Positions 15,759 through 34,900 of a stretch of DNA of 64,000 bases are shown piece after piece (the first letter of the stretch is position 1; each line of letters begins with the position of its first letter). Below the pieces are notes generated by a model that saw only the letters and a program-made list of their open reading frames with translations, searched no databases and was not told the DNA's origin. This DNA is from Escherichia phage E20. The translations under genes and the position numbers were made by a program. The stretch is from the sequence record OP745616. The stretch is one strand, 5' to 3'.

Positions 15759-18338
15759 ATGCGTTACATCACCTCTCAGGATACTGGCAAGTATCCTATT
15801 GCTATCCTCGGTCATCAAATCCGAAGGGAGGAGATGATTAAAACCTACCTGCTGCCTTATGACCTAAGCATGGAAGATTTCATCTTCCTTGAACTTCATT
15901 CTGCCCCAGGTAAGAAGAAGACTCCTGCAAGGGAGATCAAGGAGTTCATACAGCAGGAACTGCAACAAGTACTGGACGATGCAGAGACTCGGTACATTAT
16001 CTGTACCGATTCTGACTATTTCAAAATACTGACTAAAGAAGCTAAAGCAGAGGCAAACCTCGGCTATGTTTGTGATTCAGTATGGGGTAAGCAGAAGGTT
16101 ATCTATACACCCAGTTACAGACAGGTCTTTTATGACCCACCTGTAGTGAAAGCCAAGATTGCTCAGGGTATGGATGCATTACTTAACCACATTCGTGGAC
16201 AGTATGCTGAACCAGGACAGGGAATCATTGAGTTTGAAGCCTATCCAGATACGCCTGAAAAGATTAAAGCCTGGTTAGACCAGTTGCTTGAGATGAATAA
16301 GCCTCTGGCTATAGACATCGAATCCTTCGGTTTAAAGCACTATAACGCTGGTATAGGAACGATTACGTTCTGTTGGAGTAAGACACAAGGCATAGCCTTT
16401 AATGTGGACTACGAGCCGATTAAGGGGGCTACTGAAGCTCCTTATGGGCGTATCAACAGGAACGATGTTGTTCGTAACCTATTACGTGAGTTCTTCATTA
16501 AGTACACACAGCGGCAGATGTATCACAACATTAGCTATGACGTGTACATACTTATCTATCAGTTATTCATGGATAATCTGATTGATACGGAGGGCTTACT
16601 GCATGGCATGGAAATCATGCTGCGTAACTGGGACTGTACTAAGTTAATCACATATCTGGCTACTAACAGTTGTGCTGGCAATCACCTTAGTCTTAAAGAC
16701 CAGGCTCAGGAGTATGCTGGTAACTATGCTCAGGATGATATTAAAGACATTCGTCTTATTCCTAATGAGCAATTGTTACGCTACAACCTCATTGATGGTT
16801 TGTGTACGTGGTACACCTACGAGAAGCACTGGGATACTCTCATTGCTGATGACCAACTGGATGTTTACAACAACATCTTTAAACCAGCCTGTGAAGACAT
16901 TATTCAGATGCAGTTAACCGGTATGCCCATGAATATGGAAACCGTTAACCAAGTAGCTGAAGAGATGGAAACTGACAGGAACCAGGCACTGAAAACTATT
17001 CATGAGTCTAAGCTCATGAAGAACTTCACCCTGATGCTTCGTCAGGAATGGGTAGACGATAAGAATGCTAAGCTTAAGAAGAAGCAGGTAACGCTGGCTG
17101 ATTGTGACATCGAGTTTAATCCTAACTCCGGTCCACAATTACAGAAACTGTTATTTGATTATATTGGCTTACCAGTTCTTAGTCTTACTAAGAGCAAGCA
17201 ACCTGCTACTGACGGTGACACTATTAAAGCACTGCGTACACATACGCAGAGTGAAGATGTTAAGGAACTGCTCAATGCACTTATCGACTATAAACTCGTG
17301 GATAAGATTATCACTTCATTCATACCAGCTTTCCGTAATGCACAACCTGGACCAGATGGATGGCACTACCTGTTCGGTAACCTCAATCTTGGAGGAACGG
17401 TATCAGGACGTCTCTCAGCGTCCGAACCTAATCTACAGACCATCCCCAGTGGTTCTAAATATGCCAAGAAGATTAAGAAATGCTTCGAAGCACCACCAGG
17501 CTGGATATTTTGTGGACTGGACTTTGCAAGCCTTGAAGACCGTATCTCAGCTTTAACTACGAAAGACCCTCAGAAACTTAAGGTATATACCGATGGTTAC
17601 GATGGGCATAGTCTACGTGCGTATGCTTACTTTGGTGAGCAGATGCCAGACATTGTAGATACAGTTGAGTCAATTAATTCTATTCAGACGAAGTACAAGC
17701 ACTTGCGTAGTGATTCCAAAGCCCCAACGTTCTTGCTTACCTATGGTGGCACGTATATGGGCTTGATGAAAAACTGTGGCTTCTCAGAAGAGAAAGCTAA
17801 GACAACAGAGAAACGTTATCACGACCTCTATGTAGTTAGTGATATGTGGGTTCAGGCTAAGCTAGACGAAGCTGCCAAAACTGGTTATGTAACTGCTGCA
17901 TTTGGTTTGAGAGTGCGTACTCCTTTACTGGCTCAGGTATTACGTGGGACATGTAAGACTCCATATGAAGCAGAAGCTGAAGGTAGAACTGCTGGTAATG
18001 CCTTGGGGCAAAGCTGGTGTCTACTGAATAACCGTGCTGGTTCAGAGTTTATGCGTAAAGTCAGAGCCAGTGAGTTCAGATTAGATATACGTCCTAGTAT
18101 TCACATTCATGATGCTCAGTACTTCATGATTCGTGACAACATGGATACCTTGCAGTACACGAACAAGCATTTGGTTGAAGCCGTTAACTGGCAAGACCAT
18201 CCTGATATTGCTCATCCAGAAGTTGGTTTGGGTGGGGAACTATCCTTGTTTTACCCAACGTGGGCTAACGAGATTGAGATTCCAAATCACGCTACCCCAG
18301 AAGAAGTTAATCAAATAATTCAAAAGGCATTCGCATGA
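15759..18338 (+). CDS. DNA polymerase, family A (Pol I-like) with 3'-5' exonuclease domain
   Basis: 859 aa; exo motif LAIDIESFG, polymerase motif A-like LDFASLEDRI, plus conserved downstream Lys/Tyr-containing region. Confidence 0.8.
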   Translation: MRYITSQDTGKYPIAILGHQIRREEMIKTYLLPYDLSMEDFIFLELHSAPGKKKTPAREIKEFIQQELQQVLDDAETRYIICTDSDYFKILTKEAKAEANLGYVCDSVWGKQKVIYTPSYRQVFYDPPVVKAKIAQGMDALLNHIRGQYAEPGQGIIEFEAYPDTPEKIKAWLDQLLEMNKPLAIDIESFGLKHYNAGIGTITFCWSKTQGIAFNVDYEPIKGATEAPYGRINRNDVVRNLLREFFIKYTQRQMYHNISYDVYILIYQLFMDNLIDTEGLLHGMEIMLRNWDCTKLITYLATNSCAGNHLSLKDQAQEYAGNYAQDDIKDIRLIPNEQLLRYNLIDGLCTWYTYEKHWDTLIADDQLDVYNNIFKPACEDIIQMQLTGMPMNMETVNQVAEEMETDRNQALKTIHESKLMKNFTLMLRQEWVDDKNAKLKKKQVTLADCDIEFNPNSGPQLQKLLFDYIGLPVLSLTKSKQPATDGDTIKALRTHTQSEDVKELLNALIDYKLVDKIITSFIPAFRNAQPGPDGWHYLFGNLNLGGTVSGRLSASEPNLQTIPSGSKYAKKIKKCFEAPPGWIFCGLDFASLEDRISALTTKDPQKLKVYTDGYDGHSLRAYAYFGEQMPDIVDTVESINSIQTKYKHLRSDSKAPTFLLTYGGTYMGLMKNCGFSEEKAKTTEKRYHDLYVVSDMWVQAKLDEAAKTGYVTAAFGLRVRTPLLAQVLRGTCKTPYEAEAEGRTAGNALGQSWCLLNNRAGSEFMRKVRASEFRLDIRPSIHIHDAQYFMIRDNMDTLQYTNKHLVEAVNWQDHPDIAHPEVGLGGELSLFYPTWANEIEIPNHATPEEVNQIIQKAFA

Positions 18339-18640
18339 CTAAAAGTACTAAAGAAACCGTCGTCAAAAAATATCATTGGATGGTGGCAGCACAGGTAATC
18401 TTCCAGCTTCCTAAAGCTGAAGATGGTTCCCTGCTTACCATGAACACAATGCTGCTCACTGACGAACCTCATGTGACTTATAAAGATTTGGCTCGTGTCA
18501 ATCACTCCCTGAAGATTAGTCTGGACCAGCGTTTCGACACCTCGGTTGACCTGAAAGATATTGTTTATCTGTCTCTTAGCAACCTGGGTCTGATGTCTGA
18601 ACCAGAGTTCCAGGCAAACATGATTCCCAAGGGGGAATAA
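18335..18640 (+). CDS. hypothetical protein
   Basis: 101-aa ORF; ATGA overlap with polymerase gene. Confidence 0.4.
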   Translation: MTKSTKETVVKKYHWMVAAQVIFQLPKAEDGSLLTMNTMLLTDEPHVTYKDLARVNHSLKISLDQRFDTSVDLKDIVYLSLSNLGLMSEPEFQANMIPKGE

Positions 18641-18924
18641 TGACTAAGCTCTCCGGTGGTCTTAATAACTACTATGTAGTTCCAATTAAGAATCCCCAAC
18701 GGAAAGAGCAAGAGCCATATCAAGCAGAGTGTGAGGATATTATCCAAGCACTGGGCATGACCTTCGATGAAGGTTGTGCCTTTAAAGCTCTATGGCGAAA
18801 TGCTGCTGCCCGTATGGGTAATGGTAAACCAGGTAACTCTTCGGTGTACGACTCAGAGAAGATTGTGCACTATGCCAATCGAATATTGAAAAAGGCTTAT
18901 AATGAAGATAACCAACAATCATGA
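18640..18924 (+). CDS. hypothetical protein
   Basis: 94-aa ORF; start overlaps upstream stop. Confidence 0.4.
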   Translation: MTKLSGGLNNYYVVPIKNPQRKEQEPYQAECEDIIQALGMTFDEGCAFKALWRNAAARMGNGKPGNSSVYDSEKIVHYANRILKKAYNEDNQQS

Positions 18925-19882
18925 TGTCTCATTGGCTCTGGCTGTATGGCTATTACATGACGAGTATGATTACGTAGACAATCCTAAGTACCTGTCTGCT
19001 ACCACATTGCTTAAACCTATTAAGCAAATCGTCATGAAGCATCGTGTAGATTTTAGTGACCAGTCCATTGATGTTATGGATTTCGTATCCACATCAATGG
19101 GTACTGGCTTACATGACTCTATAGAGAAAGCCTGGAAGCTGGGCCATAAGACTGCATTGAAGAAGCTAGGTTATCCTCAGCGAGTAATTGATGCAGTAGT
19201 CATTAACCCAACCAAAGCAGACTTTGCTGCTAATCCTGACCTTATCCCAATCTACATTGAACAACGTGGAACCAAACAGGTTAAGGGATGGACTATTGGT
19301 GGTAAGTTCGACATCGTAACGGAAGGTCTGCTGCAAGACTTCAAGTCTACCTCAACCTATTCCTGGGTTGCTGGTTCCCGTGATGATGAACACAAGATGC
19401 AAGGCAGCTTGTATCGTTGGATTCACAACGACATCATTACTGAGGATGTAATTCGTATTAACTACATCTTCACCGACTTCATGAAACACATGGCTAACAG
19501 CAATCCGAACTATCCTGCTAATCGCATTATGCATAAGGATATTCCATTGCTATCTGTCGAGAAGACTGAGCGTTGGGTAGAGGAGAAGATTCACTTAATT
19601 GAAAAGTACTGGGATGCACCTGAAGAGGAAATCCCTGAATGTACTGACGAGGAGTTGTGGCGAACAGAGCCACAGTTCAAATACTTCTCTGATGCTTCTA
19701 AGGTAGATGTACCTGGAGCCAGAAGTACCAAAAACTTTGACGATATGGCATCTGCCCGTATCTTCATGGCTGAAAAAGGTGGCAAGGGTGCTATCAAGGT
19801 CGTGGAGGGACAGGTTAAAAGATGTCTTTACTGTCCTGTCGCATCTATTTGCAAACAAAGAGAGAGATATTTTCCATCATGA
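18902..19882 (+). CDS. PD-(D/E)XK-family exonuclease with C-terminal Cys cluster (Cas4/RecB-like)
   Basis: 326 aa; D...E.K-like segment FDIVTEGLLQDFKST; C-terminal cysteines ECTDEE...CLYCPVASIC consistent with Fe-S cluster nucleases. Confidence 0.45.
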   Translation: MKITNNHDVSLALAVWLLHDEYDYVDNPKYLSATTLLKPIKQIVMKHRVDFSDQSIDVMDFVSTSMGTGLHDSIEKAWKLGHKTALKKLGYPQRVIDAVVINPTKADFAANPDLIPIYIEQRGTKQVKGWTIGGKFDIVTEGLLQDFKSTSTYSWVAGSRDDEHKMQGSLYRWIHNDIITEDVIRINYIFTDFMKHMANSNPNYPANRIMHKDIPLLSVEKTERWVEEKIHLIEKYWDAPEEEIPECTDEELWRTEPQFKYFSDASKVDVPGARSTKNFDDMASARIFMAEKGGKGAIKVVEGQVKRCLYCPVASICKQRERYFPS

Positions 19883-22032
19883 GTATTGACCTTACCGGAG
19901 TAGTGCACCATCCAGCGATTGAAGAAATCGTAGATGTGCTCTGCAATAAAACCCAGAATAACGACCGGGGATTCTTCCGTGTCGAAGTAGCCTACTTCTT
20001 GGCTAAAATGGCATCCTGCATGGGTGCAACCATCGTAACTAAAGACCGTGGTGACCTGCCGGTAAACATCTACGCTATGGCGTTGGCTACATCTGGTTTC
20101 GGTAAAGGTCACTCGGTAAATATCATTGAAGACGGGTTCATGACTGGCTTCCGTAAACGTTTTATGGAAGACACCATGCCCGTCATTGCAAATGACCGTT
20201 TATGGAAGATTGCTAACGAACGTGCTGCTCGTCAGGGTACGGACCAGAATGATGAGTTTGATAAAGTCGAAGCAGAGTATAAACGTGCTGGGGCATTCCC
20301 ATTCACATTCGACTCTGGTACAGCACCTGCTGTAAAACAACTTCGTCACAAACTACTTATGGCTGGTTGTGGTGCTATTAACCTACAGATTGATGAGATT
20401 GGTTCCAACCTCATTGCCAACGTTGAAGTACTTAACCTGTTCCTTGAGTTGTATGACCAGGGGAAAGTAAAACAGAAGTTAACCAAGAACACTGCTGAAA
20501 GTATTCGTGGTGAAGAACTGGATGGTAAGACTCCTGCTAACCTGCTGCTGTTCGGTACTCCGAGTAAGCTGCTGGATGGTGGGCAGACTGAAGACCAGTT
20601 CTATGACTTCCTCGATACAGGGTATGCACGTCGTTGTCTGTTTGCGATTGGACACTTAGACAAGCGAGCACATGCAACGCTGACCCCGGAAGAAATCTAC
20701 CGTAACCTGATTAAGCAGGATAACGTTCAATCTCTTGGTAAGTGGGCTAACCACTTCCATAGTCTGGCTGACCCAAACCTGTTTGGCTTTAAGATGATTG
20801 TGGAAGATGCAGTGGGTATTGCTTTAATTACTTACAAAATTGATTGTGAGAAAAAAGCAGAAGCTATGGCTGACCACGAAGAAATTCGTAAGGCTGAAAT
20901 CTCTCACCGTTACTTTAAGGCTCTTAAGCTGGCAGGTGCACTGGCGTTTGTTGACCAGAGTTCATTCATTGAGATGTCTCACCTTAAACAAGCAATCCTG
21001 CTCGTAGAAGAATCCGGGGCAGCATTCCAGGGTATTCTCAATCGCGAGAAAGCCTATGTGAAGCTGGCTAAGTACATTGCCTCCGTAGGTAAGGAAGTGA
21101 CACATGCTGACTTGCTGGAGTCATTACCGTTCTATAAGAGTGGTAATGCAGCTCGCAATGAGATGATGACTCTTGCTACAGCATGGGGTTACAAACAGCA
21201 CATCATTATTAAGAAAACCTTCAATGAAGGTATTGAGTTCTTTCGTGGTGAGACTCTGAAAGAGACTGACACCAATGAGATGATAGTGGCATATAGTGAT
21301 AGCTTTGCTTATGACTATGTTGGTGAACGTGTACCGTTTGACCAGCTACATGTATTAACCCAAGCTCCCGGTATGCACTGGGTGAACCATCACATGAAGA
21401 ATGGGCATCGTTCTGAAGAGAACGTTATTCCAGGATTTAACATGATTGTTATTGATTGTGATGGCGGAGTACCTCTGCATACGTGCCATGAACTGATGAA
21501 GGAATATAAGTTCATGACCTATACCACTAAGCGTCATACCGACGAAGAGAACCGCTTCCGTCTGATTATTCCAATGAACTATGAGTTACACCTCGACACT
21601 GAGGAATACAAAGAGTTCATGAATAACGTTATGGCTTGGCTACCATTTGAAACGGATGAGTCTGCTAACCAACGAGCCAAGAAGTGGATGTCCTGTGAGA
21701 CTGGTTCCTATCATTACAACCTTGATGCAAATCTGTTGGATGTACGTGACTTTATTCCTCGTACCAGTAAGAACGAGCAGTTCCAGAACCAGATGAAGGA
21801 AGTTCAGTCGTTAGACAATCTGGAGCGTTGGTTCGCTGGTCGTATTGCCTCCGGTAATCGTAATAATCAAATGATTAAGTACGCACTGGCATTAGTAGAC
21901 AGTGGTTGGGACTTTGCTCAAGTACAGCAAGCCGTCTACTCATTCAATAAGAAACTGGCTAATCCATTACCAGATGATGAATTGAATTCAACCGTAATGG
22001 TCACCGTGGCTAAACGCTTCGCTGGCAAGTAA
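19879..22032 (+). CDS. primase-like replication protein (N4 gp43-like position)
   Basis: ORF frame 19822..22032; ATG 19879 overlaps upstream stop (ATGA); 717 aa; position between exonuclease and SSB in an N4-like replication module; function inferred from synteny only. Confidence 0.4.
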   Translation: MSIDLTGVVHHPAIEEIVDVLCNKTQNNDRGFFRVEVAYFLAKMASCMGATIVTKDRGDLPVNIYAMALATSGFGKGHSVNIIEDGFMTGFRKRFMEDTMPVIANDRLWKIANERAARQGTDQNDEFDKVEAEYKRAGAFPFTFDSGTAPAVKQLRHKLLMAGCGAINLQIDEIGSNLIANVEVLNLFLELYDQGKVKQKLTKNTAESIRGEELDGKTPANLLLFGTPSKLLDGGQTEDQFYDFLDTGYARRCLFAIGHLDKRAHATLTPEEIYRNLIKQDNVQSLGKWANHFHSLADPNLFGFKMIVEDAVGIALITYKIDCEKKAEAMADHEEIRKAEISHRYFKALKLAGALAFVDQSSFIEMSHLKQAILLVEESGAAFQGILNREKAYVKLAKYIASVGKEVTHADLLESLPFYKSGNAARNEMMTLATAWGYKQHIIIKKTFNEGIEFFRGETLKETDTNEMIVAYSDSFAYDYVGERVPFDQLHVLTQAPGMHWVNHHMKNGHRSEENVIPGFNMIVIDCDGGVPLHTCHELMKEYKFMTYTTKRHTDEENRFRLIIPMNYELHLDTEEYKEFMNNVMAWLPFETDESANQRAKKWMSCETGSYHYNLDANLLDVRDFIPRTSKNEQFQNQMKEVQSLDNLERWFAGRIASGNRNNQMIKYALALVDSGWDFAQVQQAVYSFNKKLANPLPDDELNSTVMVTVAKRFAGK

Positions 22033-26592: not shown

Positions 26593-26665
26593 TACCCGGT
26601 AGGCTTAGTGGCAAAGCCCCACTAGTAAACTAACTAGGACGCAGGTTCGAATCCTGCCCGGGTAA
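26593..26665 (+). tRNA. tRNA (isotype undetermined; non-canonical anticodon arm)
   Basis: manual cloverleaf: perfect 7-bp acceptor tacccgg/ccgggta, D stem ggct/agcc with loop tagtggcaa, T arm gcagg-ttcgaat-cctgc; anticodon arm ctag/ctag core does not give a standard 7-nt loop. Confidence 0.5.
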
Positions 26666-26674
26666 TCATACTAT

Positions 26675-26748
26675 GTCCACTTAGCTTAGACTGGGAAAGC
26701 AACCGACTAATAATCGGAAGGTCACTGGTTCAAATCCAGTAGTGGACA
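26675..26748 (+). tRNA. tRNA (anticodon read as AAU in 7-nt loop cuaauaa; isotype uncertain)
   Basis: manual cloverleaf: 7-bp acceptor gtccact/agtggac, D stem gctt/aagc, anticodon stem ccga/tcgg, T arm actgg-ttcaaat-ccagt; 74 nt; 9 nt after preceding tRNA. Confidence 0.55.
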
Positions 26749-26985
26749 CCCATTCAGCAGTAACATAGTCCTGATTGCATAGCACTCTAAAGACAACACT
26801 GGTAAGACAGTCCAGTGGCTGCTAATGTATTGTTATTCCCCTCGACGGGAATTTCGCTAGTGAAGGTAACACTTAAAAATCCAAACCTACGTCTTACTAC
26901 TATCGGGCTATCAACCCACGGTCGCTTAACCCACTAGTGGTAGTAGTTTGACGGCCTGCCTCGTTGACTGCGTTAAAGTCACTAA

Positions 26986-27689: not shown

Positions 27690-28190
27690 ATGTCAGAAGA
27701 AATTAAAGTTCACTTCACCAACTACATTGGAACCAAGTGTGTAAATGGTTTCAAGATGAACAAGGAAACATATTGCAAACTTCGTGGATGGGATGTGCCT
27801 GCTAATGAGGACCCGTTAGAAGTAGGTTACTTAGTAGAATACCCGGATTCTAAACCTAACCATGAGCAATTCCGTGGTTATATTAGCTGGTCACCAAGGG
27901 CTGCATTTGAAGCTGCATATTGTGATGTAGACAAAGGCTGCACGTTTGGTCATGCCGTAGAGCTTCTTAAAACAGGCTTCAAACTAGCCCGTAAAGGCTG
28001 GAACGGTAAGGGAATGTACATTGAGTATGTTGCCGCTGAAGAATGGAACAGCAGTAGCCTAGAGCGTCCAGGATTTGCCGATGAACTGAAGCCTCGACCG
28101 TGGATTGGTATCAAAACTGCTGATGACCAGTTTATGCCTTGGGTTCCTTCTCAATCGGATGTATTAGCCGAAGATTGGATAATTCTGTAG
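27690..28190 (+). CDS. DUF2829-domain protein (Tad2-like anti-Thoeris candidate) with extra N-terminal domain
   Basis: ORF frame 27354..28190; ATG 27690 with RBS gaggtag; C-terminal ~85 aa FGHAVELLKTGFKLARKGWNGKGMYIEY...PWIGIKTADDQFMPWVPSQSDVLAEDWIIL matches the DUF2829 consensus pattern as recalled. Confidence 0.5.
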   Translation: MSEEIKVHFTNYIGTKCVNGFKMNKETYCKLRGWDVPANEDPLEVGYLVEYPDSKPNHEQFRGYISWSPRAAFEAAYCDVDKGCTFGHAVELLKTGFKLARKGWNGKGMYIEYVAAEEWNSSSLERPGFADELKPRPWIGIKTADDQFMPWVPSQSDVLAEDWIIL

Positions 28191-28199
28191 GAAACTATT

Positions 28200-28478
28200 A
28201 TGACGCAAGTATCTATTACCTCTGTTGTTCGTGAAGCCATTCTCAACAATACAGTCCGTACTTATTCATTCGATGAAATCGCAGAGAAGCTGGGAGTAAC
28301 CCGTTACGTAGCTAAGAAACTTTACTTCTCTTTCCTGTGGTTCCCTACGGAAGAAACATTACAGAAGATAAAAGAGACTGGTAAATTACCTAGTGAAGGG
28401 CGTAAGTCTAAAATGTGGGAAACATATGACAAAATCATTAGCAGCACATCAAGTACGGGTACTAGTAGAAAGAGATAA
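28200..28478 (+). CDS. hypothetical protein (possible HTH)
   Basis: 92-aa ORF; segment FDEIAEKLGVTRYVAKKL is HTH-like. Confidence 0.35.
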   Translation: MTQVSITSVVREAILNNTVRTYSFDEIAEKLGVTRYVAKKLYFSFLWFPTEETLQKIKETGKLPSEGRKSKMWETYDKIISSTSSTGTSRKR

Positions 28479-28629
28479 TCTCAAAGAGAAGTATGAAGCT
28501 TTGGGTACTTTCTTACTCAGTCACAAGTCCCGTGAAATTGAGCCAGAAGATAAGTACCTACTTGGTTTACAGCATCAAGCTATGGGTTCTTATTTGTATG
28601 TTCTTAATAAGCGAATTGAAAGATTCTAG
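28438..28629 (+). CDS. hypothetical small protein
   Basis: ORF frame 28393..28629; ATG at 28438 (MTKSLAAHQVRVL); overlaps upstream gene in another frame; start uncertain. Confidence 0.3.
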   Translation, partial: LAAHQVRVLVERDNLKEKYEALGTFLLSHKSREIEPEDKYLLGLQHQAMGSYLYVLNKRIERF

Positions 28630-28636
28630 GAGCAGT

Positions 28637-28930
28637 ATGGAACTCTTTAAGAAAGGGCAGCTTATACCAAAGCGTATCGGTGGATTGCATGTCCATCGTA
28701 AAGCAAGACACCGTTTAGTCTTTGGTTGTGATGTACAAATTGATGGTAATAATTGGATTGCCATACCTGATACTGGTAACACAATGATTCACTGCAAGAA
28801 GTTAGGTATTCGTAGAAACAATGGTACTTATCAAAGTGTACATGCTGATTTTGTAGATATTCATTTTGAAGCTAACAAAATTGATTATGTAATCAAGACT
28901 GAACGAAAAATTCTTGTAGTTAAGAAATAA
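28637..28930 (+). CDS. hypothetical protein
   Basis: ATG 28637 preceded by aggagcag RBS within ORF frame 28493..28930; followed by strong terminator. Confidence 0.4.
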   Translation: MELFKKGQLIPKRIGGLHVHRKARHRLVFGCDVQIDGNNWIAIPDTGNTMIHCKKLGIRRNNGTYQSVHADFVDIHFEANKIDYVIKTERKILVVKK

Positions 28931-28936
28931 ATTAGA

Positions 28937-28967
28937 AGCCCCTCCTTTGAGGGGCTTTTTTATTTTA
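28937..28967. terminator. bidirectional terminator between convergent plus and minus blocks
   Basis: stem agcccct/aggggct flanked by A-run upstream and T-run downstream (ttttttatttt); sits between 28930 (+ stop) and 28965 (- stop). Confidence 0.55.
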
Positions 28968-31900
28968 GTTTACTAAGTTCATCCAAGGGTTCAGGTTGTG
29001 AGCACGAAGACCCTGACCAAAGCCCCAAGAGTAATCCAGACTACCCTTAGCAGCAATACTAAAGATGTTGTCCTGAATAGGTAAGCCAACGTTACCAAAC
29101 ATGGTAGGGGTTGGAGCCAGCATCGCCATTGCTGCATGAACCGGGTTGTTACGAATCATGGACACTGCAACCTTAGCTGAACGAATCTTAAAGTTGTAGA
29201 ACCACATCAAACCAACACTTTCCATATACCCACGGAAGCGACCTGGTAAACGGTCATAGTTAACGAACTCTTCCGTTACACGTCCCAGTGCTTCTTCACG
29301 AGTCTTACCTTTACGCTGAGTCAGTTCATCATAGATGATTGCTTTAGCGATGAAGTCGGAGTACTCAACAGTCTTCTGGATACCCTGGAACAAAGCAGTA
29401 TCCTTAGTGATAAGTGCATAACGACCAGCAGTACGTACAGACTTAGGTAATTTATCAGCCAGCTTTTCCATGTATTCGTGAAGTTTGCCCTCAGTAATCA
29501 AGATGTCATCACGACCAATACCAGCATCTGCAATTGAAGAGAACTCACCTGCTTCTAACAGAGGCCAGATACTCATACGCTTATGGCTATCAGTAATAGA
29601 CTGAATTTCAGCCTTAAGTTTACGAATCTGGTTCGGGTTAGTAGCTGCACGTAATTCTGCTTCTGCATCTACCTGACGCAGACGAGATTTAAGATACTGG
29701 TTAATCTCAGCAGTTTTCTGTGGAATGCTCTTAGCAATATTCTTAACAGGTACACCACGAGCAACCATCTGGTAAAGGTTAGCCAAGAAGTTAACAGCAG
29801 GTACGACTACTGACTTAACTACAATCAGCGTCTTAGCTTCTTTAACTAAGTTTTGAACCAGGTTCTCACCACCCATTGTGTACTTATAAGCACGGTTGCC
29901 AAATACACCCAGCATAGCTTTCTTGAAGGTATCCAATGTTTCCGGGGACCAACGAGAATTACCTGACCAGGCATCTCCAACGGAAGCTGCACGATAACCT
30001 AGTGCATCATTCAGCATGTCACGACGTACCCACAGTTCACCTTCACCGAACAAACTCTCTGCTTTCTGGCGTGTTTCACTATTCATCAGCTTAAGAGCAT
30101 CAGCAGTTACTGGGTCCAGTTTAGAACCAAGAAGGTTAACGTACTGGGACTTATTAGCAGAAGACATCTTAATGTCATTCTCATACATGCTATGCAGGTT
30201 CTCAATCAGCATATCGTTGAAACGCTGAGCCTTAGCTTCTTCCACCTGACGACCACGCCATACACCTATTGCACGGGCAAGATGGTTTTCACCTTCAATG
30301 TGTTTCAGCATGTTAGGGTCAATGGATTGTTCATAGGCAACCACATTACCTTTATCGTCATATACAGGCATCAGTGGTTCATTACCACGTTCCCCACGAG
30401 CCAATGCTTTAGTGATACGGTCTACGGAAGGCTTGTCAGTAATACGACCAGCTACCATGGAACCCATCGTAAAACCTGTGCCGATGTCTACACCACCAGC
30501 AGTATTGCGAACGTTTTGTAGGATACCCTGTGAGAAAGGAGCTTGTGCCTGTACCGGTGCAAAATAGTAGCTACGTGCTGGACCACGATTAGCGGAGCTA
30601 CCTTGATAAGTACCCAGACGTACATAGGACTTCTCAATCAAATCACCAAACTGACTATCTTCAGCAACAATCAGATTAACACCTTGTTTAGTCTCACTCG
30701 GGATATGTCCTTTGTACTGGTTCAAGGTTGCACGCATATCAGATTTGGCTTTAGCCATTTCATCTTTACGCTGACCAACCAGGTAAGAAGTAGCAAAATC
30801 CATTCCATCAACTTCTGATTGAGCCAGTGAAGATAACATCTCACGGTCGGACTTGTTCATTGCTTCCAGTGCATACAGGGTAATCAGCTTATCCAGTTGA
30901 GCTACATCTACAGTAGAACGAGCAGCCTGACGTTCGCCCAGCATACGGGAGATTGCAGTAGCATTACGCAGCAGGTTATTACCGACTGTACCGTTAATCA
31001 TGAACTGAGCCAGTTGCTTAGATTTACGACTAATCAGAGGCCAGTTACGGCCTGCTTGTTTCTGTAAATCTGCTTCCAGCTTATTCACTTCACGGTCAAC
31101 AATCTTCTGGTCAGACAGCAAGTCACGGATTTCAGCCAGAGACATGGTGTCACGCAGAACAGCCAAATCAGTTTTACCCATACCAGTGTGCATTGCTTTC
31201 CACTCATCGTTAGTCAGCTTACGGCTGAACTTAGATGCGATAGTGGTAGGCAGATGTTCACGGAACTGCTGACGATCTGCCTGCACCTGTGCACGCACTG
31301 CTTTAATCAAATCGTATACAGAAGCATTACTCTTAGTACGACCAGTTAAGTCATTAACCAGGTCATGGAAAGGTTGCCATACCTTACCCTGGTTCATTGC
31401 AGCCATAACACCTTCAGCTACGATTGCACCATTCTTCTCTGTAGCAATAGCAGCTATCAGTTGTGCAGCATGAGCAGCACCTTTGACCAATGGATTCTTG
31501 GTATTAGCTGCAACTTCACGAGCACTTTCTAAAGCACGGGTAGACAGTGCATCAATAGAATCCACCAGATACTGGTTAGAACGGTCAATAGCATTACCAC
31601 TAGGAGTAGCAACAGAATCATATAATGACTGTGCATTGAGGCTAGTCTGCATGATTGTTTGAGCCAGTGCATCCATACCTTCCTGTACGTTGGTAGCTTT
31701 AGTGTCACCTGCTACACGGGCATTCAAGCTAGACATTGCAGCAGTACCGATGTTAGTCAGCATTGCATCAATGGTATTCCCAGATTTCTTATCTGCTTTC
31801 ATAACAGGAATGTTAGCCAGTACGTTACGTACTTCTTCGCTTACCATTGCCAGACCAACAAAGGTAGGCAGTAAGGAAGAACGACCCTGTGCGTCAAACT

Positions 31901-34900
31901 CAATATTGTTAGCACCCATGATGGTATCGAACTTCTGCTGAGCATAGTAACGGTCAGCTGGGTTAGTGCTATCCGGGTCAGCCATGAATGCTTCAACTGT
32001 CAGGTTCTTAGTAACGTGTGCATAGTATTCCTGTGCCCGAGAAAGAGCAGCCGGACTAATAGCAGCTTCAATAGCCAAAGCAGCAACGATATTAGTGAAC
32101 AGGCGTTGTTCCTGCATATTCATAGTAAAGCCATGAGCCTGAACATCACGGGTTACTTTAGTTGCATTCACTACTGCATCAGAGAACTTACCTTTACGAA
32201 TTACTTGCTGTACTGGTTCAGAACCAATGTAGTTAGTAATCAGTTTGTCAAAAGTCTGTCCCAACTCTTCCAGACGGATATTGTCACCATACGCCTTGTT
32301 ATGGAACAAGGTAGTGTCTTTGGATACAGCAGCCGTAGGAGCCTGTCCACGCATAACTACAGAAGAGTTAAACAGCAAGCCGGAGAACATATCATCTGCA
32401 TTAGCAGGTGCTTTCTTACGACCAAATACCAGACGCTTGATTGCCTCATACACAGACTGAACCATAGTTTTCAATGCAGTGGTTTTCTTCTGCTTACCAA
32501 TCAGTTCACGGTTGGTTAAACCCCAAGCCATATACTCATTCAGTGCAGCAGCTTTAGCCATTGCAGGTTCAATAAAGCCATTAGACAAGTGACCGTTAAT
32601 GGTATTGAGAGCATCAGCATATGCTTCACGTACTGCCGGGGATTCATTCTTAACATCCAGAGTACGGAACTGGTTCATCAGGTCTTCAATATTCTGAACT
32701 GCTTCATTAGGAGTACCCTCATAGTGAGCCAGTACAGATTCAAAAGTAGAAGCATGTACTAATTCATGAACCAGAGTCTCTAAGGAAGGGGTAACTAAGT
32801 AGATGGTCTTATCATCAAAGTTAGTCCAGCCATATGCATTACCAGCTTCGGCAGCTTCAATATCTTCTGGTGCTGGGCGAGTAATGTTCTTCTCAATAGC
32901 ATAAGCATCCAGTTGAGCAGGAGTACCGTAAACAACCTTGTAGTCTTTAGCAGCAAGGGATTTCTGTACTTCTTTCAATACTGCTTGCTGTTCAGGAGAC
33001 ATCTCTTTAGCCAGCCTAGTGATAGCAGTATTGGACAGCATACGTACACCAGACTTCAGTACACGACCAACCTGTTCCATTGCTGGTACTTCTTTAACAG
33101 GTACTTCTTTCACTGGTTCTGCTTTAGCAGCACGTACTGCATCGCGACGCTTGTTTAATTCAGCATCAAACAGTTCGTTCAGCTTAGCTACTTGCTGGTC
33201 TACAGTCAGACCTTCCAGAGAGATTTTACCGTTGTTCACATAAGGAGCACCCACAGCAGCCATCTGATCAACAGTGGTCTGTACCTGGTTCATTACTTTG
33301 TGGCGAATATCTACACCCAGAGCAATGTTACGCAGGTTACGTTCAATAAGGTTAACACCGGAATTCTTAATCATATCAATCTTATACTGCCTGTCTCCCT
33401 CAACACGACTGATATGAGAAAGCTGTTCAAAATCCAAAGCAGAACGGGCAATGTCATCAATTGTCTTATCCGACAACTTATTAAAGTCTACGTTCTTCAT
33501 GAACTTAGAGAAGGAGTCATAAACATTCTTGATAGGATTACCCTGCCAAGAAGTATATACAGCCTCATTAGCTTTACGGCTTGCATCAGTGATGTCATTG
33601 ATACCAATGTTCATACCATCAAAGATTTTCAGGGTATTCTTCGGTGCACCTTTCATAGTAGAAAGGGTCTGCATCATCATGCCATCACCAGTACCAATGG
33701 TCATAAATGGAATACCTGCAACACCTGCTTGTGAAGGAGCATAGACGCTCATTGGCACACGCATACGGTCATCTAAGTTGGTAGCCAGTACTTGGTTAGC
33801 AACATCAGTATTCTCACTACCAGCAATGTAGAAAGTTTGTGAGCCAGTCTCAATCATTGGAGCCAGTGGAGATAATGATTCCTGGATTTCATTAAGTTCT
33901 TTCTGCGTTAAGAAATCGCCCTTCTTCCAGGTTGGGTCTTTTTCTTTTTCTGCTAGTTTAGCCTGTACTGCTTGTTGGAACATATCCTGCAATACTAAAG
34001 ACTGAATTTGAGTAGCCTTCTGCAAGTTCTCAGTGGAGTGCATCAGACCTTCACCAACAGTGAACCGGATACTTTGTCTCATTGGTTCAACGAAGAAGTG
34101 CAACATATTCTCTTGTAAGTTCTTAAGGGCATCACCAGATACAGTAAACTCCTGGGGATCTAACTCACCAGTCAGAGCACCATCTACCTCCTTAATAAAT
34201 AACTTACCTTTACGCTTGGCTGGAATTTTACCAGTCAGTGCTTCCATAGAAGTAAGGAAAGTATCCAGCATAGCCTGAGCATCCGCTTCAGACGCAGCCT
34301 CCTTACCAAACATTGCCATAGCTGGGGAAATGCTAGGGTCAGCAGCACGTGCTTGCAGAACGTCACTGAGGCGTTCATAGATGGTATCAGTAATTGCACT
34401 AACCATCTTGCCAGCAATACCACGAGCACCAGAACCATAGATGGTAATGGTCAGTGGGTTTTTAGCTATACCACGTTTCAGGTCCAGAGTACCGTCTTCA
34501 TTCAGGTTAAAGTCTTTAATGAACAGGTCCATTAACTTCTGGAGATGATTCATCTGGCTCATAATCGGAACGTTGTTACGGTAAGCACTACGTAATTCAT
34601 TTAGATAGAATTGCAAACTATTGGTAGATGCTTCATATAAGTCAATGCTGTCATCATATGAATGATGTTCATTCATAGTCTTACCGGCTTTACCGAAGAA
34701 CAAGCCACCCTTAGCAGTATTCTTAATCCAATTTTGGGTGAACTTACCACCAGTCATTAATACCATTGCGTTGATTGGGCCGTTGGTTACACCATCAGCT
34801 TCGACATACAGTGGGGTATTAAAGTTGGCACGGTCATCGCTGTTCAGGTAACGGGCATATTCCATCAGAGCCATGAGAGCTACAAAGGATTTGTTATCAC

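Follow-up and report, generated by a model that had tools for sequence, protein, structure and literature searches.

Sequence and fold analysis of the gp42-type exonuclease of N4-like phages, a Cas4-like PD-(D/E)XK nuclease with an oddly placed fourth cysteine

The window, which is the whole stretch of 64,000 nucleotides of Escherichia phage E20 (OP745616) that was analysed, carries at positions 18902..19882 (+) the coding sequence of a gp42-type exonuclease, a reading frame of 326 amino acids that begins with ATG and is given with its stop codon included, as in the ORF listing. Between positions 18000 and 21000 the window is 100% identical to record OP870143.1 of Escherichia phage vB_Eco_F22 (Schitoviridae, Enquatrovirinae, Gamaleyavirus), and the 326-amino acid protein is 100% identical to the product of F22_0050, which was deposited in that record under the label 'exonuclease'. 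The gp42 protein of phage N4, also labelled 'exonuclease' in RefSeq, is 71% identical over the full length. The protein is assigned to PHROG 2139, 'exonuclease', with an E value of 7e-153 over residues 1-325; length, motifs, the four cysteines, and gene position agree with those of N4 gp42 and this family, and no difference of substance exists. The gene is, then, that of the N4 gp42-type exonuclease, a catalogued gene with a sensible annotation, which is confirmed here by fold and motifs.

The start of the exonuclease gene overlaps an upstream ORF of 94 amino acids by 23 nt and is preceded by a purine run of the AAGG type, located 8-13 nt 5' of it. The called start is considered correct, because the N-terminus MKITNNHD also begins N4 gp42 and the 24%-identical homologue of Leptospira phage LE4. 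At the other end, the stop codon of the exonuclease gene and the start codon of the primase gene overlap in ATGA, which suggests translational coupling of the two genes. A mechanical ORF list lets the primase ORF begin at an ATG at 19822, within the exonuclease gene; the start at 19879 is favoured by the deposited annotation and by the PHROG match. The small upstream ORF (18640-18924, +) is labelled 'polynucleotide kinase' in OP870143.1. Of the 202 amino acids of N4 gp41, however, only the N-terminal 86 have a counterpart in it (80% identical), and among larger PHROG families, including one of 3'-phosphatase/5'-polynucleotide kinases, its match is confined to an end segment of about 90 residues. 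The name kinase thus seems to have been transferred on the strength of a small domain held in common.

The surrounding genes form a replication module in the order Dda-like helicase, a small ORF, family A DNA polymerase, two small ORFs, exonuclease, primase, Sak4-like protein, SSB, and RuvC-like protein. The family A DNA polymerase (15759..18338, +) is the homologue of N4 gp39 (PHROG 17, E 5e-171) and the DNA primase (19879..22032, +) that of N4 gp43 (PHROG 2135, E 0), both in accordance with the annotation. [quoted passage not shown] The gene order of N4 is the same, and N4 gp44 is annotated as the same Sak4-like annealing protein. The first-pass annotation had placed the gene in the position of the N4 exonuclease, between polymerase and primase, and this is where it lies, since gp42 is located between the DNA polymerase gp39 and the primase gp43 of N4. 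The Sak4-like protein is the probable recombination partner of the exonuclease.

When the relatives G7C, PhAPEC5, Mimir124, UE-M6, and U1G were compared with positions 18000-21000 of the window, several were found to carry an HNH homing endonuclease gene adjoining the exonuclease gene. In the HNH-bearing relatives the match is interrupted, falling into two or three segments, and its length is greater by about 700 bp; F22 is devoid of an HNH gene, and this distribution marks the stretch of the replication module as a hot spot of homing-endonuclease gain and loss.

Full-length homologues of the exonuclease were found by translated search in 471 phage records, nearly all of them of N4-like phages. 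The hosts of these belong to Escherichia, Pseudomonas, Vibrio, the Roseobacter group, Rhizobium, Erwinia, and others, with Leptospira phage LE4 as an additional source. At E<=0.001 the homologue family comprises 2,617 clusters at 50% identity, and relatives are named 'PD-(D/E)XK endonuclease-like domain-containing protein' in UniRef. For the analysis of conservation, 150 representatives of such 50%-identity clusters were collected, 143 of which aligned over the full length with the query to give a set of 144 sequences. Identity of these 143 homologues to the query ranges from 36 to 53%, and the mean column identity is 32%.

Besides PHROG 2139, the query matches PHROG 1706, a family of phage Cas4-like proteins, with an E value of 3.7e-12, which supports a Cas4/RecB-like fold. 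Assignment to a nuclease superfamily by Pfam models is near the threshold for the query itself. The Pfam model PDDEXK_1 (PF12705) gives 17.6 bits, which is below the gathering cut-off of 22, and N4 gp42 scores 20.3 bits; the model matches 59 of the 144 family members at E<=0.01, with 3.7e-7 as the lowest value, and the match spans profile positions 102-247 only. The Cas4 model PF01930 is without a match to the query even at E<=10, the NCBIfam search with the query returned zero matches, and in a PDB sequence search neither the query nor the 144-sequence profile nor the LE4 homologue found a match. The solved structures discussed below are linked to the protein by fold comparison only and not by sequence search.

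The catalytic motifs, on the other hand, are complete. The PD-(D/E)XK core consists of G134-K-F-D137 and D146-F-K148 (19301..19345, +; codons checked), and is followed by Q167-G-S-L-Y171 (19400..19414, +), the QxxxY motif of RecB/Cas4-type nucleases. Upstream of the core, H71 and E75 are part of the motif G-T-x-x-H-x-x-I-E (19112..19126, +), and the N-terminal motif S32-x-T34-x-L36-x-K38-P39 (18995..19018, +) is the counterpart of V-T-D-L-x-x-C in Cas4. Among the 144 sequences, the columns of S32, G67, H71, E120, G134, D137, D146, K148, Q167, Y171, P205, and C247 are invariant, and E75 is conserved in 97%. Altogether, 38 of the 326 columns are conserved to at least 90%, and these include all four cysteines and every catalytic residue; each of H71, D137, D146, K148, Q167, and Y171, and each of the cysteines, is conserved to at least 98.6% in the 143 homologues. 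Because the catalytic residues are invariant, an inactive or purely structural protein is ruled out.

Profile comparison places these motifs directly upon those of Cas4. The reference was the sequence of SSO0001, which is 100% identical to 4ic1_A, within an alignment of 75 family members in which C32, H62, D99, E113, K115, Q131, Y135, C188, C191, and C197 are invariant. In hhalign the gp42 family and the Cas4 alignment match with a probability of 80% and an E value of 1.4e-5, with all catalytic motifs in register: H71 is paired with H62, E75 with E66, D137 with D99, D146 with E113, K148 with K115, Q167 with Q131, and Y171 with Y135. At the N-terminus, T34 is paired with T27, L36 with L29, and P39 with C32, and the same register is obtained in a run with single sequences. 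The histidine equivalent to H71 is presumably a metal ligand. An AlphaFold2 model calculated from the 144-sequence alignment has a mean pLDDT of 97.5 and a pTM of 0.91; Cas4 is its best structural match, Dna2, Exo5, and MGME1 are among the top matches, and Foldseek is in agreement, with 4IC1 (SSO0001) at an E value of 5e-7. The fold, as modelled, is of the RecB/Cas4-like PD-(D/E)XK type. With its D...(D/E)-x-K core and QxxxY motif, the protein is a member of the PD-(D/E)XK superfamily in its RecB-like branch, and the Cas4/RecB-like core that had been read from the sequence in the first place stands.

This resemblance to Cas4 raises the question of whether the protein might be a phage-borne Cas4 that opposes the defences of the host, its target being either the choice of new CRISPR spacers, which it would skew, or the nucleases of the host. 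Besides Cas4 being the best structural match, such a role would be in line with the match to PHROG 1706, which is categorized as 'CRISPR/Cas system associated'. Skewing of spacer acquisition by Cas4 has been proposed for Campylobacter phages (PMC4283603). Against it, the query is without a match to the Cas4 Pfam model, the PADLOC search returned nothing for it, and neither cas1 nor cas2 nor a CRISPR array is present near the exonuclease gene. The matches in the 471 phage records extend over many host genera, and in N4 and F22, the two records examined for this, the gene is located in the replication module. Cas4 is, moreover, not known to take part in the type I-E and I-F CRISPR systems of E. 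coli. A CRISPR-related role was rejected on the gene context, the earlier idea of an action against nucleases of the host finds no support from either gene context or PADLOC, and a function in anti-defence as a whole is regarded as highly improbable. The protein is Cas4-like and is not Cas4; the qualified name is chosen because two marks of Cas4 are missing, namely the match to the family model and a first cysteine in N-terminal position.

The second of these marks concerns the only unusual trait of the protein. There are exactly four cysteines among its 326 residues, C247 (in IPECTD), C308 and C311 (in CLYC), and C317 (in SIC), which are spaced C-x60-C-x2-C-x5-C and are all located C-terminal of Y171. 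The pattern C...CLYC...C behind the core had been pointed out by the first-pass annotation, and it is a genuine feature of the family, C247 being conserved in 100%, C308 and C311 in 99.3% each, and C317 in 98.6% of the 143 homologues. Conservation of the cysteines is more than would be expected by chance, because with 38 of 326 columns conserved the probability that all four would fall into conserved columns upon random placement is (38/326)^4, or about 2e-4. It had been named beforehand that a missing PD-(D/E)XK fold and cysteines not conserved in homologues would tell against the proposal; the fold was detected, and the cysteines are conserved.

The three C-terminal cysteines form the triad C308-x2-C311-x5-C317 (19823..19852, +), which aligns to C188, C191, and C197 of Cas4. 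In a profile comparison restricted to the C-terminal part, C308, C311, and C317 fall on these three residues with an E value of 6e-5, and C-x2-C-x5-C is present in 142 of the 144 sequences. The first cysteine of Cas4 behaves differently. C32 of Cas4, which is N-terminal, corresponds to P39 here; in the 144 sequences position 38 is occupied by K or R and position 39 by P or S, and a cysteine is found at neither position in any of them. Cysteines located before D137 are sporadic across the 144 sequences, and a conserved one is not found before residue 247. C247, the fourth cysteine, is situated behind the nuclease core, and the profile comparison yielded no counterpart of it in the Cas4 alignment. 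Thus the initial statement that the cysteines are arranged as in Cas4/AddB holds for the triad, which aligns to that of Cas4, and does not hold for the first cysteine, which follows the core instead of preceding it. As judged from the sequences, the canonical N-terminal cysteine of Cas4 would have been lost, with P39 in its place, and C247 would be an additional invariant cysteine at a non-homologous position.

In the iron-staple domains of AddB, AdnB, Dna2, and Exonuclease V (Exo5), one cysteine is situated N-terminal of the nuclease motifs and the cluster ties both ends of the domain together. The ligands thus bracket the motifs, an arrangement that was checked for Cas4, whereas all four cysteines are C-terminal in the present protein. 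The protein also stands alone, with no helicase fusion. Compared with SSO0001 of Saccharolobus solfataricus (PDB 4IC1), a 5'-to-3' ssDNA exonuclease with a [4Fe-4S] cluster and 202 amino acids, it is longer, with 326 residues; an insert of about 58 amino acids precedes the triad, and residues 76-118 are without a counterpart in the hhalign alignment. It further differs in the absence of a cas context and of a PF01930 match. To lambda exonuclease, RecE, and YqaJ-type phage exonucleases, which are paired with annealing proteins and form ring-shaped oligomers, there is no relationship at the sequence level, and enzymes of these types are not known to have a cysteine cluster. By analogy, the protein would be expected to work like Cas4, AddB, Dna2, or Exo5.

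C247 is embedded in a motif of its own, C247-T-D-E-E-L-W253 (19640..19660, +), which combines the non-canonical fourth cysteine with residues specific to the family. Its general form is P-x-C-T-x-E-E-L-W, in which L252 is conserved in 97% and W253 in 99%. Residues 248-305 (19643..19816, +) constitute the family-specific insert of about 58 amino acids between C247 and the triad; its secondary structure is strand-strand-helix-strand, and no structural match was obtained for it.

The same layout recurs in LE4 gp62, which possesses a motif of the C247 type (C[TS]xE[ED]xW) and the triad and is without an N-terminal cysteine. Around it a clade of 32 relatives, encoded on contigs of uncultured viruses, was assembled, 27 of which contain the motif C[TS]xE[ED]xW in its strict form. 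In 30 of the 32, the triad is spaced C-x3-C-x5-C or C-x4-C-x5-C and an N-terminal cysteine is absent.

By analogy with Cas4, the triad of which binds an Fe-S cluster in SSO0001, C308, C311, and C317 are most likely ligands of an Fe-S cluster. For the fourth ligand we infer that C247 replaces the N-terminal cysteine, because it is invariant and a fourth ligand is needed. Alternatively, the four cysteines of the same nuclease might coordinate a structural Zn2+ in place of an Fe-S cluster and form a zinc knuckle to which the inserted domain would be anchored; some caution regarding Fe-S is advisable, given that the first ligand is displaced and that triad spacing varies within the LE4-like clade. 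However, no top structural neighbour that possesses such a cysteine triad is known to bind anything but Fe-S, and the spacing of the triad, which is aligned to that of Cas4, is exactly the Cas4 one in all but two of the 144 sequences. One Cas4 is reported to be active in vitro even without its cluster (PMC8610317), and yet that cluster is of the Fe-S kind, which likewise counts against zinc. Because 142 of the 144 sequences keep precisely the spacing of Cas4, Fe-S is favoured over Zn2+, and coordination of zinc is deemed unlikely.

With an Fe-S cluster as the preferred reading, the gp42 family, and the LE4-like clade with it, might represent a rewired Fe-S nuclease, in which the staple cysteine would have been lost, C247 would have taken over, and the cluster would anchor an extra domain; we give this scenario an even chance. 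If it were true, the extra domain could dock the Sak4-like protein, the SSB, or the replisome, or could sense DNA ends. The only new point of the analysis is the combination of the insert with a fourth cysteine out of its usual place, of which no description was found. The cysteine arrangement differs from that of every characterised Cas4, AddB, Dna2, or Exo5 enzyme, and the family, with its roughly 2,600 clusters, is large; nature would here have performed an experiment on the purpose of the cluster in such nucleases, which may be of modest interest to enzymology. As a discovery the gene is of little consequence, being already catalogued and annotated; it is a known gene, ordinary and conserved apart from one oddly placed cysteine.

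Concerning function, it is considered quite probable that the protein as a whole is a gp42-type PD-(D/E)XK nuclease of the RecB/Cas4 class with a four-cysteine module, likely acting as a 5'-to-3' exonuclease in replication and recombination. The active site would be formed by H71, D137, D146, and K148 with a divalent metal, Q167 and Y171 constituting the QxxxY motif of the RecB type, and the C-terminal module would hold an Fe-S cluster by means of the triad and C247. DNA would be degraded in the 5'-to-3' direction, by which ends and terminal repeats would be resected to leave 3' single strands. The Sak4-like protein and the SSB would then pair the resected strands, giving rise to concatemers and recombination-dependent replication. 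Removal of primers or 5' flaps would be a possible extra task.

The polarity of degradation is most likely 5'-to-3', given that 5' ends are the substrate of the closest structural relatives and that a 5'-3' exonuclease domain is missing from the polymerase of the phage; this polarity and the role in recombination are drawn from analogy and gene order only. The nearest structural neighbours are enzymes that we take to be Fe-S-containing and 5'-end-processing. Dna2, Exo5, and MGME1 are flap or 5'-end processing enzymes. In the 1980s, an N4-coded 5'-3' exonuclease was reportedly purified in the Rothman-Denes laboratory and was required for replication in vitro. An open-access paper tying this activity to gp42 was not found, nor was a specific biochemical, Fe-S-content, or structural study of gp42 in the literature. 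For Cas4 of the SSO0001 type, 5'-to-3' exonuclease activity along with an Fe-S cluster is described (PMC3466216). If the assignment is true, the enzyme that carries out the exonuclease step when N4-type phages replicate and recombine, working with the Sak4-like protein and the SSB, would be identified at the molecular level.

A different emphasis would make removal of primers or 5' flaps during lagging-strand maturation the main role of the enzyme, which would replace the domain missing from PolA instead of resecting ends. Such a role would agree with the translational coupling suggested for the exonuclease gene and the primase gene and with the presence of Dna2, Exo5, and MGME1 among the top structural matches. 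It has been described that PolA of the N4 type is without a 5'-3' exonuclease domain (PMC2784036). The same gene block, however, holds the Sak4-like annealase, the SSB, and the RuvC-like resolvase, and the LE4 homologue is encoded near a RecT-like annealase with no polymerase or primase around. Replication of N4 is also reported to use the 5'-3' exonuclease of the host Pol I. Primer or flap removal as the main role is compatible with everything seen, and it and end resection are not mutually exclusive; as the main role it is judged possible though somewhat doubtful.

As to the resection reading, the LE4 homologue is located one gene away from the RecT-like annealing protein and outside a polymerase/primase context; such a pairing of exonuclease and annealase is standard in phage recombination modules. 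When annealase, SSB, primase, or polymerase neighbours were sought in 45 LE4-like viral contigs by tblastn with proteins of F22 and LE4, no match was obtained, save one helicase. The pairing of exonuclease and annealase in the LE4-like clade is accordingly known from LE4 alone, because no partners were found in the 45 contigs.

Some further observations were made on these contigs and on the window. The LE4 locus (L003, 2732-4909) and the loci L005-L048 represent a separate gp42-like clade on contigs of 40-65 kb that are not N4-like, and the gene neighbours in the LE4-like contigs other than that of LE4 have no detectable similarity to the replication proteins of LE4 or F22. Downstream of the replication module of the window, ARAGORN predicted two adjacent tRNA-like genes at 26593-26665 and 26674-26752 (both +), one of which is a tRNA-Ile with the anticodon AAT. 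The second call, directly upstream of the tRNA-Ile, has a two-base anticodon and was assigned no identity; possibly it is a tRNA that has decayed or is of an unusual kind. Only the tRNA-Ile is annotated in the GenBank record. The cumulative GC skew rises to a peak near 30 kb and declines thereafter (about 28000-32000 of the window). The peak coincides with the switch from the replication genes on the plus strand to the virion RNA polymerase on the minus strand, so that the strand bias appears to follow the direction in which the genes are transcribed.
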